Counted from the first letter of the whole stretch, positions 6,001 through 12,000 are shown. The stretch is DNA of 63,882 nt, filler included, from Candidatus Woesearchaeota archaeon (GCA_023266675.1; 6 parts of 6 records of this genome joined end to end with filler, not necessarily neighbours in it), one strand, 5' to 3'. Program-made: the numbers.

Positions 6001-9000
6001 AACTCTGACTTAAACGCAAACATTGCGGGTGTGCCGGAGCGGTCAAACGGGCTAGGTTGAGGGCCTAGTAGCTTAGTGCTTGCGCGGGTTCGAGTCCTGT
6101 CACCCGCATATATTCATAAATATTCATATTAAAAAAAATAAAGGAAAAATAAAATGACAACAACAAACACTCAATTGGCAGAATTGATAAATGACTTAAA
6201 AAAAGTCTCAAGCGAGAATGACGCAGGAATCTGGAAAAGAATAGCTTACGATTTATCAAAATCAACAAGACAAAGAAGAATAGTTAATCTTTCAAAAATA
6301 AGTAGATACTGTACTGAAGACGAAGTAATCGTTGTGCCAGGAAAAGTTCTTGGAAGCGGAGAATTAAACAAAAAACTGACAATCGCAGCATACCAGTTCT
6401 CAGATCAGGCAAGAGAAAAAATAAAAGAAGCCAAAGGAACATCACTTGATATTTCAGAATTAATAAAAAAGAATCCACAAGGTAAAAAAGTAAGGATAAT
6501 GGGATGAAAACATGAAAATAATTGACGCTAAAGATCTAATCATTGGACGATTTGCAACAATTGCAGCAAAACAGGCATTACTAGGCGAAGAAGTCATAGT
6601 GATAAACTGCGAAAAAGCAATTATAACAGGCGGACGGCCAAACATAGTTGAAAAATTCCAAAGAAAAAGAAGCATGGGAACACAGGCAGTAGGACCATTC
6701 TTCCCGCGAAGTCCTGACAGAATTGTAAAAAGAATAATAAGAGGAATGCTTCCATACAAACAGCCAAAAGGAGACGCAGCATTTAAGAGAGTAAAATGCT
6801 ACAACGGAGTTCCAGAAGCTTTTGAAGGAAAAGAATCAATGCAAATAAAAGAAGCTAACGTTTCAAAAATGCCAAACTTAAGATACATGACAGTAGGGCA
6901 AGTTTCAAAAGTTTTAGGTAACAAACAATAAAAGGTTTTATACAATGAAAAAAGCAATACACATTTCAGGAAAAAGAAAAAGAGCAATTGCAAAGGCAAC
7001 ACTAACAGACGGAAAAGGTATAGTCAGAGTTAACGGATGCCTTTTAGAACACTACGAACCTGAATTTGCAAGACAAAAAATCATGGAACCATTCCTACTT
7101 GCAGGAAGCCCAACAAACATAGACGTAAATATCAAAATCATAGGCGGTGGCGTAACATCACAGGCTGACGCAGCAAGACTTGCAGCAGCAAGAACAATGA
7201 TACAGCACACACCATCACTTAAAAGCGTATTTTTGGACTACGACAGAACACTGCTTGTTGCTGACGTAAGACGAAAAGAATGTAGTAAGCCAAACAGGCA
7301 CGGTCAAGCAAGGTCAAAAACACAGAAGTCATACAGATGAGGAAATAAAAAAATGATAATTCCAGTCAGATGCTTTTCATGCGGAAAACCAGTAGGACAC
7401 TTATGGGAAGAATACTCAGAAAGAGTCAAGCGCGGTGAAGACAAGAAAAAAATCATGGACTCACTCGGCCTTGAAAGATACTGCTGCAGAAGCGTATTCC
7501 TAGGACACGTTGAACTTGCTGATATGGCTTCAAAGTTTAAGAAGTATTAGTTTTTTCTAAAATATTTTTTTAATAATTTAAATTTTATTAAAATAGAAAT
7601 CTATAAATTCTAAACTAATTTCACCTTCAATATTACACGGCTGTGGTCTAGTGGTATGATTCGAGCTTCCCAAGCTTGCGGTTCGGGTTCGATTCCCGGC
7701 AGCCGTATATTAATTCTGAAACTATAAAATATAAAACACGAAAGGATTATATATACTTTTTAAATCATATACGATATGGTTAGAGAAAGAATAAATACGG
7801 ATACTGGTTTTTATTTTGTTGATGATAATAAAAATAATAAGAATTTAGTAAATAAAAAAAATGAAAAAGACACAAGAAAACTTTTCCCATGGTTAATACC
7901 TATAATAAATAGTTATGATGAATTAACTATTTATCTACAGCAATATAATTCTACTAAAAAAGATTTAATAATACCTACATTAATAAACTATTCAAAATCG
8001 CTTAAAAAAACTCAAAAAGAAAAAAATTCAGATGAAACTGTTCATAATGAAATAATTAAGTTATTAAATACTTTAGAAGAAATGAATAATAAACATGCGG
8101 ATAACGAATTTCTAAGAGCAGATATAAATAAAATAATAAAAGAATTTGATTGGGAACTATCAGGTACACAATATCAAGAAAAATATATAACTAAAGTTAG
8201 AGAGTTAATAGAAAAAACTAATTTTAGATTATAATCACTCCGAATTTCTTAATGTTATTTTTTTAATATATTCAACTCAAATCCCCATAAACTTTAAATA
8301 TTATCGACTAATTCAGTTTCTAATGGCAGAGATTGATCATATTGCAATACAGGAGAAATGGCAGAAGCGTTGGAATGATGCCAAATTATTCAAAGCAGTT
8401 CTAGACAAGTCCAAGCCGAAATTCTACTGCCTTGAGATGTTTCCTTACCCTTCAGGCTCAGGCCTTCACATGGGGCACGCCTTCAACTACACAATTGGAG
8501 ATGTATACTCTCGATTTAAGAGAATGAATGGGTTTAATGTTCTTTATCCAATGGGGTATGATTCTTTTGGATTACCAGCTGAAAACGCTGCAATAAAAGC
8601 AAAAAGCCACCCAAGAAAATTCACTGAAGAGGCAATCCAGAATTTCATAAAACAGCAAAAAGCGCTAGGCCTCTCATATGACTGGGACAGGATGCTTATG
8701 ACGCACAGCGAAGAATACTATAAATGGAACCAGTCAATATTTATCAAGCTTTTTGAAAACGACATGGTTTACAAAAAGAAGGCGTCAGTAAACTGGTGCC
8801 AAAAATGCGACACGGTGCTCGCCAATGAGCAGGTACATGACGGATGCTGCTGGAGACACCCTGAAGATGAGATTCAGATAAGACAGCTTGAGCAGTGGTT
8901 TATCAAGACAACAAAGTACGCTGAAGAACTTCTTACAGATCTTGAAAAAATTGATTGGCCTAAAAGAATAAAAATTATGCAGGAAAACTGGATAAGCAAA

Positions 9001-12000
9001 AGCTTTGGAACAGAAATAGAGTTTGAAATTGAAGAGAACACTAATTTTGTCTTATTGCATGGATACAACGGATCAGTAAAAAAAGATTTTTTTCCATATC
9101 TAAAAACCGAGCTTGAAAAAAGAGGGAAAAAAGTAAGCGCAAAAGACCTTCCAAACACGTCAGACCCTAACGTTGCAGAACAGGTTGAGTTTGTATTAAA
9201 GAATAATCATTTTGATGAAAACACAGTTTTAGTCGGTCACAGTCTTGGCACAATTATCTCATTAAAAGTACTTGAAAAAATTCAAAAACCAATAAAAAAA
9301 TTAGTGCTTGCAGGCGGATTTTTAACACCTGATTTCAAGGACAATAAAAAACGTGATTTTACAGATAAATTTGACTTTAAGTTTGATTTTGAAAAAATAA
9401 AACGTAACGTGAATGAAATAGTAATCTTAAGCGACAAGAATGATTACGTTATACCACTAGAACAAGGACATAAATTAAAAGAGAAAATTAATGGTGATTT
9501 AATTGAAACAACAGCAAAAATTCCTCATTTCAAAGCTGAACATGAACCTGATGTATTAAACGCGTGTCTAAAAAAGTGGAAAATATTTACAACACGACCG
9601 GATACGATATACGGAGTCACATTCATGGTTATCTCAGCGCAACACCAAAAACTCATGTCTTTAGTGACAAAAGAACAGAAGAATGAAGTTGAGGAGTTTC
9701 TTAAAAAAATAAAGTCCACAAGCGAAAAAGACACAGAGGAACTCGAGAAAGAAGGCGCATTCACAGGTTCATATGCAACAAACCCATTAACCGGAGATAA
9801 AGTTCCAATATACGCAGGAAACTTTGTTGTAGCAGACTATGGTTCTGGAATGGTTATGGCAGTGCCAGCGCATGATCAAAGAGACTACGAGTTTGCAAAA
9901 AAATATAGCATACCAATTAAAGTTGTTATAAATCCAAATGACAATAAAATAGACAAAAACAACCTTCTAAAAGCGTACATTGAAGACGGATACGTCATTA
10001 ACTCCAGAGAATTTTCAGGGTTAAACAATGAACTTGCAAAAGACAAGGTAACAGAATACCTGGAATCAAAAAACTTAGGGAAAAAAACAGTTCAATACAA
10101 ACTACGAGACTGGCTCATATCACGACAAAGATATTGGGGAACGCCAATACCAATGATTTACTGCGGCAAATGCGGAATAGTCGCTGCAAAAATAGACGAC
10201 TTACCAATCAAGCTTCCTGAAGACATAATTTTTGGCGAAGGAAACCCTATACTTTCATCAAAACATTTCTTAAAAACAAGATGTCCAAAATGCAATAGTG
10301 ATGCACGCCGCGAAACAGACACAATGGACACATTCTTTGACAGCTCATGGTACTACTTAAGATATACTGATGCAAAAAATCAGAATGAAATGTTTGACAG
10401 AGAACAGGTTGACTACTGGCTCCCAGTTGATCAATATATCGGCGGAGCAGAGCATGCATGCATGCATCTTGTATATGCAAGATTCTTCACTAAAGCACTC
10501 CGGGATTTAGGATACCTCTCATTTGACGAACCATTCTTAAAATTATTCAATCAGGGAATGCTTCACGGATACGATGGCTTTGTCATGTCTAAATCACGAG
10601 GAAACGTTGTGCTTCCTGAAACGATATCAGAAAAATACGGAATAGACACAGCAAGATTTTTTCTTTTGTCAATAGCAAGCCCTGACAAAGACATTGAATG
10701 GAGCGACAAGGGAATTGAGGGAAGCTACAGATTTATAAAATCAGTTTTCTCATATTTTGAAAGTGTAAAAATAGGCGTTTCTCAGAAGAGGACTGTAAGC
10801 AAGCTTAACAGAACAATAAAAGAGATGACAATCGATATTGAGGAATTTAAATACAATCTTGCCATAATTAAGCTAAGAATGCTTTTTGAATCATTAAAAA
10901 GCGAAGAAAGCAAGGATTCACTTGAGAAATTCTTAATGCTTTTGCATCCTATATGCCCTCACATAACTGAAGAATTATGGGAAAGCATTGGTAATAAAAC
11001 TTTTCTAACAACAACTCCGTGGCCAAAATGCGATGAATCAAAAATAGATGACAGGGAAGAGTTTATGGAGCAGATAGAAATGACTGTTAAGTCAGACATA
11101 AACACGGTTCTTTCGCTTGCAAAAATCACAGAGCCAAAAAAGATAACAATAATAATTTCACAAGAATGGAAGTACAGCTTCTTAAGTCGCCTTAAGGAGA
11201 AAATTGATGAAACAAGAGATTTCAGGGAGCTTATGATGCACGTGCTTCTTGATGAAACGCTTAAAAAACACGCACAGAATATACAAAAAATAATACCAAA
11301 TGTCCTTAAGGATCCAAAGAAGATTCCGCCAGTGATGCTTGACCAGCATAGCGAGAAAAAAACGCTTGAGCAGATAAAAGATGTGCTGAAAAACGAATTT
11401 AAAACTGAAATTGAAATAGTTGTTGCCGAAGAATCAACGCACGCAAAGGCACAAGCGTCTATGCCTAGTAAACCTGCAATTGTTATAGAATAATTCTAGA
11501 AATTAATATAAATAAAATTAAAAAATAATTTTATTACCAGCTTGCAAGTGACTTATTTGCAGAACCAAGCTGTGTATCTACCTGCGTTGTGTCAAGCGTA
11601 TTTGATGTTGTGCTTGCATCACTTATTCCCTGCGTTGCCTGCGTATCAATAGCGTTATTCTGCTCACTAGTTGCTTGAGTGTTATCTATAGATGCTTTTT
11701 GTGTGCATCCAACAAATAATGTAACTGATAATATTATCACTGTTAAAATTGTCAATATTTTTTTCATTAATCCACCTCGGTGTTTATGGAATACTTTTTT
11801 TGTTATTTAAACCTTTCTTTAGATTATTAAATCAAATAAAAAAATAAAAAATAATTAATGCTTATGTTGTGCTTGTCTGCACTGCTTCACTATCAGGGTT
11901 TAGTGTTTCCATACTTGCTGAAGTTGTTTCCTGGACGTTTTCTGATGAATCACCTATTTGATTCTCTTGCTCATCATTATCCATCTTTTCAACAACAGTG

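Follow-up and report, generated by a model that had tools for sequence, protein, structure and literature searches.

A leucyl-tRNA synthetase with a YdeN/RBBP9-type serine hydrolase nested in its editing domain in a Woesearchaeota archaeon

The window (i.e. the whole stretch of DNA analysed, 63,882 nucleotides including filler, from a Candidatus Woesearchaeota archaeon) contains a leucyl-tRNA synthetase (LeuRS) gene that forms a single open frame (Table 1). It was described in the first-pass annotation as the only LeuRS gene of this archaeon, and indeed no second one was found in the 95.9%-complete genome. The whole protein scores above the cut-off of TIGR00396 leuS_bact (914.9 bits, cut-off 548.4) and below that of TIGR00395 leuS_arch (257.1 bits, cut-off 648.5). 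Pfam places tRNA-synt_1 at residues 12–225, Abhydrolase_1 at 242–353, the LeuRS editing domain PF13603 at 417–581 (covering profile positions 21–185 only) and Anticodon_1 at 825–923. The full-length AF2 model (pLDDT 90.8, pTM 0.81) matches bacterial LeuRS structures in Foldseek (TMt 0.75–0.81), and bacterial-type LeuRS (T. thermophilus 1h3n/2bte and E. coli 4aq7) match the window's LeuRS in sequence at E 2.7e-213. The likeness extends to the catalytic core, to the place of CP1 and to the HIGH, KMSKS, TTRPDT and Asp motifs. The CP1 editing motifs of bacterial-type LeuRS are a T-rich peptide and a conserved Asp. What sets the window's enzyme apart is a CP1 hairpin longer by 181 residues and an archaeal-type C-terminal domain.

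Table 1. Positions of the LeuRS gene, its domains and its motifs in the window
Feature	Residues	Position	Strand	Basis
Whole LeuRS open reading frame	1056 aa plus stop	8323..11493	+	TIGR00396, genome search, AF2 model
N-terminal half of catalytic (Rossmann) domain	1–225	8323..8997	+	Pfam, alignment to T. thermophilus (Tt) LeuRS
HIGH motif (HMGH)	49–52	8467-8478	+	H49 and G51 invariant in 59 relatives
First CP1 strand, upstream arm of the insert-bearing hairpin	226–238	8998..9036	+	Model strand 226–236
YdeN/RBBP9-type serine hydrolase cassette	239–419	9037..9579	+	Pfam, alignments, insert-only model
Oxyanion pair H246-G247	246–247	9058-9063	+	Aligned to YdeN/RBBP9
Nucleophile elbow GHSLG with S307	305–309	9235-9249	+	Aligned to YdeN/RBBP9
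Catalytic D374	374	9442-9444	+	Aligned to YdeN/RBBP9 Asp
Catalytic H402	402	9526-9528	+	Aligned to YdeN/RBBP9
Remaining CP1 editing domain	420–592	9580..10098	+	Pfam, Tt alignment, conservation
T-rich peptide TTRPDT	423–428	9589-9606	+	Aligns to Tt 247–252
D521 of CP1	521	9883-9885	+	Aligns to Tt D347
Second catalytic half, with RDWLISRQRYWG at 595–606	593–800	10099..10722	+	Pfam, alignment, conservation
VMSKS (KMSKS motif)	754–758	10582-10596	+	S756 and K757 invariant in 59 relatives
Helical anticodon-binding domain	801–900	10723..11022	+	Pfam, sliding identity
Archaeal-type C-terminal domain, ending ...MPSKPAIVIE	901–1056	11023..11490	+	1wz2 alignment, sliding identity

The hydrolase domain that had been annotated inside CP1 before the TTRPDT peptide is borne out by Pfam and by alignment to T. 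thermophilus LeuRS (1h3n), with residues 239–419 (~181 aa) as its limits. In that alignment, query residues 7–238 correspond to Tt 7–238 and query residues 420–768 to Tt 244–599; the break at Tt 238/244 thus places ~181 inserted residues there, in frame and in the hairpin just before the editing peptide. Ser_hydrolase (PF06821) matches residues 243–397 with 35.1 bits (cut-off 22), and this is the one PF06821 domain over the cut-off in the genome. The kinship with YdeN and RBBP9 proposed earlier holds by sequence, with the insert alone matching YdeN 1uxo (E 2.1e-13) and RBBP9 (E 5.6e-9), and also by structure. The best structural matches of the insert-only model (pLDDT 95.0) are to YdeN 1uxo (TM 0.83–0.84, rmsd 2.0 over 186 columns), and RBBP9 gives TM 0.80–0.82. 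YdeN/RBBP9 reach E ~1e-12 in the structural search, against ~1e-6 for the next hydrolases (i.e. an approximately million-fold gap).

The insert shares with YdeN (1uxo), RBBP9 (2qs9, 7oex and 9fcr) and PF06821 a common minimal ~180-aa alpha/beta hydrolase fold, and with YdeN and RBBP9 the same Ser-Asp-His order, GxSxG elbow and HG motif. However, YdeN and RBBP9 are free-standing, whereas the window's insert is embedded in a LeuRS loop. Its subfamily, clade B, comprises 120 of the 182 complete domains in our hydrolase tree (split at a support of 100) and differs from YdeN/RBBP9 in features of its own, Q287 and a C-terminal helix with E408-P409. At the position of the amine-binding Glu108 of RBBP9, the insert has a Lys, in a gapped loop where the alignment is unreliable. 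The insert probably folds independently, and its place in a hairpin suggests that its two ends lie side by side.

We then compared residue conservation. Among 59 site-1 LeuRS, S307, G309 and H402 of the insert are invariant and H246, G247 and D374 are kept in at least 90%, while the editing and synthetic residues H49, G51, T423, T424, T428, D518, R520, D521, S756 and K757 are all invariant. Across clade B, S307 is found in 119/120 domains, H402 in 120/120 and an acidic residue at position 374 in 110/120 (D in 99, E in 11); the latter is D in 62/62 domains of clade A. This agrees with the first-pass annotation in that the triad and HG motif are kept and the synthetic and editing motifs are intact, but not in its choice of D371 as the triad Asp: D374 is the residue aligned to the Asp of YdeN/RBBP9, and the D371 position is D in only 76/120 clade-B domains. 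Mean pairwise identity is 0.448 for the insert, 0.479 for CP1 and 0.325 for the C-terminal part; as judged from sequence comparison, the insert is under purifying selection. The probable second hydrolytic activity suggested earlier gains support from the confidently predicted fold, the kept triad and HG motif and the host-like rate of change, and the insert is probably catalytically active. Some copies have a degraded nucleophile elbow (AESLS in G217; CHSLG, with HA replacing HG, in G077), and hydrolase activity may therefore not be retained in every copy. Two genomic copies (L095 and L097) are frameshifted.

The host enzyme is itself composite. Query residues 823–1056 align with residues 728–967 of P. 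horikoshii LeuRS 1wz2 (E 1.1e-22), reaching the last 1wz2 residue, and sliding identity locates a switch from CPR-like to archaeal-like sequence near residues 870–900. A bacterial-type C-terminal domain is absent: no alignment of CPR LeuRS covers residues 991–1056, and the CPR enzymes end in QVNGK...VNIVV, unlike the window's LeuRS. An archaeal-type C-terminal motif is common to 39/39 complete LeuRS fetched from the order. Likeness to 1wz2 is confined to the C-terminal part, whereas the body is nearer to CPR bacterial LeuRS. Because the C-terminus matches 1wz2 and CPR LeuRS is unaligned over residues 991–1056, the enzyme is a hybrid rather than a plain TIGR00396 member; by these alignments it is a chimera of a CPR-like bacterial body and an archaeal C-terminal domain. 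The earlier label 'bacterial type' thus holds for residues 1 to ~870 and fails for the C-terminal domain.

We also analysed how widely the insert occurs. The hydrolase domain is carried by 52 LeuRS clusters among 61 hits, 17 of which also have a NUDIX domain; recurrence in relatives had been reported before and stands, with these counts replacing 38 and 15. The same architecture is found in 76/80 independent public loci (in 67 the insertion site is also shared) and in other genomes of the order. A hydrolase homologue at E≤1e-5 is present in 168 of the 401 order genomes and absent at that threshold from the other 233; the figure of 168 replaces the earlier 139. Nearly all of the 150 matches listed (there are 58 further ones) are free-standing frames of 180–230 aa with 26–38% identity; LeuRS-size frames hold 10 of these 150, plus one fragment. 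This type of LeuRS occurs in 262/401 order genomes, mostly as 875–900-aa frames without the insert. It is also missing from the closest relative among LeuRS (68% identity), and on the LeuRS tree the window's enzyme is sister (support 95) to the insert-less enzyme of G113. The site-1 insert label requires five changes on this tree, and grouping all insert-bearing LeuRS together is rejected (log-likelihood drop 437.5, p-AU 7e-56). The insert thus appears patchy, dispensable and optional across LeuRS.

Free-standing clade-B proteins have a Met 2–6 residues ahead of strand 1 and end directly after the last helix; in its aligned extent, the cassette equals a whole free-standing protein of 175–190 aa. 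In genome G400, a separate gene for a 178-aa copy (54% identity to the insert described here) lies 1.3 kb upstream of a LeuRS that has no insert; the L18e-L13-S9 neighbourhood is the same as in the window. Clade B contains domains from LeuRS site 1 (n=76), LeuRS site 2 (n=11), IleRS (n=6) and ValRS (n=2), free-standing proteins (n=13) and single members from AlaRS, a GlyRS-like enzyme, TsaD, UvrA, UvrB, SecA, EngA and an Fmt-like protein. Beyond LeuRS, hosts of this subfamily belong to at least 10 housekeeping protein families, and two other LeuRS sites are also occupied; a more distant copy, outside the tree, lies in an FtsY-like protein. The inserts of TsaD and UvrB form a sister pair (support 100), to which the G217 LeuRS insert is nearest; sister cassettes are found in different host genes.

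Other guests at the same LeuRS loops include NUDIX, GNAT, HAD, ANT-like nucleotidyltransferase and IS200-type transposase domains, a pattern in which LeuRS is a permissive host for inserted domains. GNAT and this hydrolase occur together in relatives P0042 (IleRS) and P0120 (LeuRS), and in relatives YdeN-like domains are accompanied by GNAT and S51 domains. NCBIfam NF040702 (ileS_w_GNAT) is a curated precedent, in which a class Ia aminoacyl-tRNA synthetase (aaRS) carries a small enzyme domain, with a different guest family and host; the window's LeuRS scores 99.8 bits (cut-off 1999) and is not a member. Inteins are likewise in-frame inserts in conserved essential proteins, with patchy distribution and overlapping hosts (UvrB, aaRS and SecA). 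However, neither PF14890 nor another Hint/splicing domain matches the LeuRS, and the 181 aa are wholly hydrolase fold; unlike an intein, the hydrolase presumably stays part of the mature enzyme. The PADLOC-DB defence models gave no families for the insert or for two unannotated neighbouring ORFs.

Several explanations of this architecture were weighed. The only hint of an artefact, be it mis-assembly, a bacterial gene wrongly binned with the archaeon or a fusion made in gene calling, is that an archaeon has a LeuRS body of the bacterial type, which is unusual. Such an artefact is extremely improbable, given the single open frame, the position directly downstream of an archaeal S13-S4-S11-RpoD-L18e-L13-S9 cluster on one contig, the repetition of the architecture in independent public loci and other order genomes, and the archaeal-type C-terminal motif common to the order. 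Another explanation would give the cassette no cellular role: as a selfish or neutral passenger, it would spread among LeuRS alleles by recombination via conserved flanks, and its in-frame embedding in an essential gene would bar imprecise deletion. This would be consistent with its patchy, polyphyletic spread on the LeuRS tree, an intein-like list of essential conserved hosts (one UvrB host also has an intein), the in-frame IS200-type transposase domain that P0108 has at the same site of its LeuRS, a cassette GC of 0.31 compared to 0.38–0.39 in flanking LeuRS sequence, and the degraded elbows and frameshifted copies noted above. It seems improbable, however, because the triad is kept almost universally across deep divergence, the insert changes no faster than LeuRS's own domains, it is the sole PF06821 copy of this genome, and neither homing or splicing machinery nor flanking repeats were found.

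Alternatively, the substrate of the tethered hydrolase could be an ester, thioester, anhydride or amide of an aminoacyl group, either formed at the synthetase or directed against it. Candidate substrates would be mischarged or N-blocked aminoacyl-tRNA, aminoacyl-adenylate, homocysteine thiolactone (from class Ia editing) and inhibitors that mimic aminoacyl-adenylate. Passages of PMC8866121 describe RBBP9 as an aminopeptidase that requires a free alpha-amine, forms acyl-enzymes with Leu/Ile, Phe, Tyr and Trp, and acts on aminoacyl groups in an 'amide (or ester or thioester)'. RBBP9 is also cited as a valacyclovir-activating enzyme (reference 5 of PMC7730578), and BPHL, another valacyclovir hydrolase, is identified in an excerpt of PMC4198189 as a homocysteine thiolactonase. 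The hosts comprise five aaRS families plus TsaD and an Fmt-like protein, and of the 104 clade-B cassettes whose host was identified, 98 lie in aaRSs, a count biased by the LeuRS-derived query and shared descent. LeuRS has captured such domains independently and repeatedly (three sites, two hydrolase clades), the IleRS cassette lies 12 residues before WSTTPWT in a position structurally equivalent to LeuRS site 1, and the free gene in G400 adjoins LeuRS. GNAT and NUDIX co-passengers and an S51-peptidase fusion (P0202) point the same way, as their families include known detoxifiers of aminoacyl-nucleotide antibiotics. For example, MccF (S66), MccG (S51) and MccE2 (GNAT) target the aminoacyl moiety of aaRS inhibitors, according to PMC8323819 and PMC9239234; the window's LeuRS belongs to none of these immunity families by sequence or fold, and the likeness is one of analogy. 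Against such coupling, the clade-B cassette also resides in UvrA, UvrB, SecA and EngA (and the distant copy in an FtsY-like protein), which are unrelated to aminoacyl chemistry, and free-standing cassette genes occur. Three dispersed LeuRS sites are at odds with a fixed geometry toward the editing pocket, and the canonical editing residues are all intact, leaving no gap for the hydrolase to fill. Furthermore, insert-less LeuRS are the majority in the order, most order genomes (233/401) have no homologue at the threshold used and, among the hydrolase and LeuRS matches listed, an incomplete comparison by eye found no free copy other than that of G400 within 40 kb of LeuRS on the same contig. We regard this coupling as a tentative and rather unlikely possibility.

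The explanation we favour, and consider somewhat probable, is a working LeuRS bearing a tethered, self-contained, catalytically competent but optional passenger serine hydrolase. The host part would function as a normal LeuRS, with all canonical motifs, a CPR-like catalytic/CP1 body and an archaeal C-terminal domain. The guest is a whole ~180-aa YdeN/RBBP9-family protein at the tip of a beta-hairpin, with the S307-D374-H402 triad and the H246-G247 oxyanion pair. The hydrolase would act apart from aminoacylation and CP1 editing and, by analogy with RBBP9, may hydrolyse amides or esters to release an aminoacyl group whose alpha-amine is free. Nothing in the sequences compared appears to link this second activity to leucine proofreading. 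We found no published description of a LeuRS with a nested hydrolase in the literature. Essential proteins of ultra-small microbes carry several such enzyme passengers, and the LeuRS hydrolase would be among them.

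The leucyl-tRNA synthetase (LeuRS) of this archaeon scores 914.9 bits against the NCBIfam model TIGR00396 (leuS_bact; cut-off 548.4) and aligns with the Thermus thermophilus enzyme in two blocks (query residues 7-238 onto 7-238, and 420-768 onto 244-599). The gap between the blocks places ∼181 inserted residues (239-419) in the hairpin of the CP1 editing domain right upstream of the TTRPDT motif (hereafter site 1), and this insert alone matches YdeN (1uxo) and RBBP9 with E-values of 2.1e-13 and 5.6e-9, respectively. Pfam, TIGR00396, the T. thermophilus alignment and the YdeN/RBBP9 matches thus agree that the LeuRS with an inserted serine hydrolase described in the first-pass annotation is real. 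The contig is archaeal, with an S13-S4-S11-RpoD-L18e-L13-S9 cluster directly upstream of the gene; this ribosomal-protein context, and the fact that 76 of 80 independent public loci are LeuRS, rule out an assembly or binning artefact. Neither a second LeuRS nor another PF06821 domain over the cut-off was found in the genome (1.22 Mb, 95.9% complete), consistent with the earlier claim that this is its sole LeuRS. An intein was also rejected, because the protein (P0001) has no Hint domain. The only DNA repeats at the insert flanks are short AT-rich chance matches, and no PADLOC defence-system model was matched.

Features of the LeuRS region and of related loci (window positions unless residues or a locus are named)
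Feature	Position	Strand	Size	Remarks
LeuRS ORF	8323..11493	+	1056 aa	
N-terminal class I core	residues 12-225			Pfam
Abhydrolase_1	residues 242-353			Pfam
Ser_hydrolase PF06821	residues 243-397			Pfam
LeuRS editing domain PF13603	residues 417-581			Pfam, matched only from profile position 21 on
Anticodon-binding domain	residues 825-923			Pfam
Archaeal-type C-terminal domain	residues ∼870-1056 (10900-11490)			ends in ...MPSKPAIVIE
tRNA-Leu(GAG)	6024-6109			within ribosomal-protein cluster, 2.2 kb upstream of LeuRS
tRNA-Gly(CCC)	7637-7707			next after tRNA-Leu(GAG)
tRNA-Tyr (ARAGORN call)	17299-17386		88 nt	odd anticodon ATA
Very AT-rich stretches	7500-8250, 13250-14000			flank LeuRS region, GC 0.21-0.26
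ORF	7776-8234		152 aa	no Pfam or PADLOC match
ORF	11862-13346	-	494 aa	no Pfam or PADLOC match
LeuRS contig	1-21213			only this part of the window
N spacer joining contigs	21214-21313			short TTAATTAATTAA linker
Free-standing YdeN-like ORF	L042 (Nanoarchaeota MAG) 1714-2280		189 aa	29% identical to insert; ∼1 kb upstream of insert-bearing LeuRS
Locus with free hydrolase	L114 (G400:C44) 1708-6355			L18e-L13-S9, 194-aa ORF, free clade-B hydrolase (178 aa), 409-aa ORF (no Pfam match), insert-less LeuRS
NUDIX/nucleotidyltransferase site-3 LeuRS	L117, L120, L132, L134, L135, L155, L131			genomes G246, G296, G362, G324, G332, G238, G328
IS200-like Y1 transposase domain PF01797	P0108 residues 269-374			in frame in a 998-aa LeuRS, E 5.4e-14

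An AlphaFold2 model of the whole protein, for which 59 relatives were used (pLDDT 90.8, pTM 0.81), resembles bacterial LeuRS structures (TMt 0.75-0.81), and its insert region, with pLDDT values of 82-96, lies between strands 226-236 and 418-423. Modelled alone, the insert reaches a pLDDT of 95.0 and a pTM of 0.91; its best structural match is YdeN (TM 0.83, rmsd 2.0 over 186 columns), followed by RBBP9 (TM 0.80-0.82), and the next hydrolases have E-values about a million-fold worse. The models indicate that the insert is an independently folding family member that carries its triad. Across the 59 site-1 LeuRS, (i) the hydrolase residues S307, G309 and H402 and (ii) the LeuRS residues T423, T424, T428, D518, R520, D521, H49, G51, S756 and K757 are invariant, and the host is an intact LeuRS. 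The catalytic Asp had been assigned to D371, but this residue is Asp in only 76 of the 120 domains of the window's insert type (clade B, see below). D374 is better kept (Asp in 99 and Glu in 11 of the 120, and Asp in all 62 clade-A domains) and shares an alignment column with the Asp of YdeN and RBBP9, so the triad Asp is corrected to D374. Mean pairwise identities among the 59 proteins (insert 0.448, CP1 0.479, catalytic core 0.527, C-terminal part 0.325) show purifying selection on the insert, which is constrained to the same degree as the domains native to the host.

The LeuRS had also been described as of bacterial type, which holds for its body but not for its C-terminal domain. Residues 823-1056 align with residues 728-967 of Pyrococcus horikoshii LeuRS, to its last residue (E 1.1e-22). 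In 60-residue windows, LeuRS of CPR bacteria are closer up to about residue 870, and from about residue 900 on the closer enzyme is the archaeal-type LeuRS of a genome from the same family; CPR sequences gave no alignment over residues 991-1056. A PGKPAI-like ending, judged by eye, occurs in every one of the 39 complete LeuRS retrieved for the order, and G052, a genome of the window's family, encodes a true archaeal LeuRS (978 bits). The enzyme is a hybrid of a CPR-like bacterial-type body and an archaeal-type C-terminal domain, a chimera that may show how a transferred synthetase was fitted to archaeal tRNALeu.

We then compared the proteins that carry related hydrolase domains. The insert region, used as query in a word-indexed search, matched 61 proteins: 52 LeuRS (17 also with NUDIX), six IleRS, one GlyRS-like class II enzyme, one UvrB and one FtsY-like protein. 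The exhaustive HMMER search returned 1473 representatives at E<=1e-3, of which 38 reach E<=1e-30; among the matches listed, 79 of the 148 new representatives are shorter than 230 aa. In the 69 longer ones, Pfam identifies further hosts (ValRS, AlaRS, SecA, TsaD, UvrA, EngA, an amidase and a formyltransferase-like protein) and terminal fusions to small enzymes; in P0202 a YdeN-like domain is fused to an S51 peptidase. A FastTree phylogeny of 182 complete domains, with 27 partial domains left out, splits into clades A and B (support 100). Clade A (62 domains) is mainly free-standing. Clade B (120) comprises inserts at LeuRS site 1 (76), at LeuRS site 2 (11), in IleRS (6) and in ValRS (2), one each in seven other hosts, and 13 free-standing proteins. 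Inserts of different hosts are sisters on this tree (TsaD with UvrB, support 100; EngA with ValRS, support 98). In the free-standing clade-B proteins the initial Met precedes strand 1 by a few residues and the chain stops just past the last helix, and these ends are the exact borders of the cassette. The cassette is a complete protein, promiscuous and mobile between sites and hosts.

Two further arrangements were observed. In P0108 a transposase domain occupies the CP1 site of the window's hydrolase, and the hydrolase is at site 2. IleRS frames of 1762 aa (L107/L110, G402:C4) and 1479 aa (L108/L111, G403:C5) contain the cassette and, directly after it, a weaker second hydrolase-like stretch (24-28% identity), which may be a tandem hydrolase pair inside IleRS.

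Species-representative genomes contain 118 loci with relatives. The best 80 of these comprise 67 LeuRS with the insert at site 1, five at site 2, four ambiguous LeuRS (two frameshifted) and four IleRS; by title, 11 of these 80 are from DPANN archaea and the rest from CPR bacteria. Within the window's order, 168 of 401 genomes have a homologue at E<=1e-5, including none of the three in the window's own family. The homologues reported earlier across the order are present, but most are free-standing genes rather than LeuRS inserts: almost all matches listed are free-standing frames of 180-230 aa with 26-38% identity, LeuRS-size frames make up 10 of the 150 listed, plus one fragment, and 58 further matches lie outside this list. 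LeuRS of this type, 56-75% identical in their N-terminal part, occur in 262 of the 401 genomes, mostly as frames of 875-900 aa. Unpublished genomes account for 3 of those in the homologue tally and 11 of those in the LeuRS-type tally; the named examples rest on none. The cassette is not strictly limited to one copy per genome, since G076, G117 and G077 contain a second copy.

In a set of 41 LeuRS retrieved for the order, the hydrolase is at site 1 in five genomes (the window's, G076, G117, G077 and G217), at site 2 (after RDWxxSRQR) in G241 and G131, and at site 3 (inside CP1, near profile position 146) in G264, G319 and G280. In six other genomes a NUDIX domain occupies site 3, and in another an ANT-like nucleotidyltransferase (PF10706/PF14907) does; the site is a second permissive CP1 loop in these relatives, and G164 has an insert of ∼110-140 aa at this position. 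The clade-A profile scores higher for the inserts of G319, G280, G264 and G241, with a tie for G131 (105.2 vs 102.8 bits); these site-2 and site-3 inserts are therefore separate captures. The elbow of the G217 insert reads AESLS, and the inserts closest to it are those of TsaD and UvrB.

A LeuRS tree with 45 rows places the window's enzyme as sister to the insert-less LeuRS of G113 (support 95), and on it the site-1 label needs five changes. Forcing the insert-bearing enzymes together, a group defined after the tree was seen and without the fragment G217, costs 437.5 log-likelihood units (p-AU 7e-56), so a single origin followed by vertical descent is rejected. The presence of the insert is optional. 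In G400 the L18e-L13-S9 synteny is kept, and a free hydrolase that shares 54% identity with the insert of the window lies 1.3 kb upstream of the insert-less LeuRS; this locus possibly represents the state before or after an insertion.

The first reading, an intact LeuRS with an extra and probably active hydrolase, holds with the above corrections, and the insert would be an active hydrolase that acts independently of the LeuRS to which it is joined. The main rival reading, which we keep alive, links the hydrolase to the chemistry of aminoacyl-tRNA synthetases (aaRSs). RBBP9, the only characterised relative, is described in one study (PMC8866121) as an aminopeptidase needing a free alpha-amine, with acyl-enzymes trapped with Leu/Ile, Phe, Tyr and Trp and with ester or thioester substrates allowed for by its authors; by analogy, the insert might act on aminoacyl groups with a free alpha-amine. 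The host list is rich in aaRSs, LeuRS has captured the hydrolase repeatedly, the IleRS cassette is at a spot equivalent to that in LeuRS, and the co-passengers described below also speak for this rival. However, UvrA, UvrB, SecA, EngA and FtsY-like hosts, the free-standing forms and the dispersion over three LeuRS sites count against such a link, as do the canonical editing site, which is intact, and the large number of LeuRS that lack an insert.

A specific form of this link concerns the other passengers. Two sources (PMC8323819; PMC9239234) describe aminoacyl-nucleotide antibiotics detoxified by the GNAT MccE2, the Ser peptidase MccF and the S51 peptidase MccG, so that the GNAT and S51-type families found as co-passengers include such detoxifiers. 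The YdeN-like hydrolase, like its GNAT, NUDIX, HAD, nucleotidyltransferase and S51-peptidase companions, could be an on-target protection module of aaRSs in CPR and DPANN organisms, a proposal that we consider improbable. The targets of the synthetase-borne hydrolase would be aminoacyl-adenylate mimics (Trojan-horse aaRS inhibitors) or reactive aminoacyl by-products, cleaved in their aminoacyl part. Such protection would explain the repeated capture of this family by LeuRS and, if true, would make the hydrolase a device for immunity or metabolite repair that is built into the enzyme.

Full-text searches turned up no description of LeuRS with a nested hydrolase, and database records already name such proteins LeuRS or 'alpha/beta fold hydrolase'. 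In a 2026 survey of 2.7 million domains (PMC13114784), the LeuRS editing domain is 100% an insert and never a host. Here CP1 is itself a host, which makes the architecture a two-level nested insertion. The interest of the finding lies in this nesting and in the enzyme cassettes carried by essential proteins of ultra-small microbes: in bacteria and archaea with ultra-small genomes, surface loops of essential proteins have repeatedly received small whole enzymes, spliced in as cassettes that move from one host gene to another. Should aminoacyl compounds be what the hydrolase acts on, it would represent a new kind of aaRS-attached quality-control or self-protection activity.
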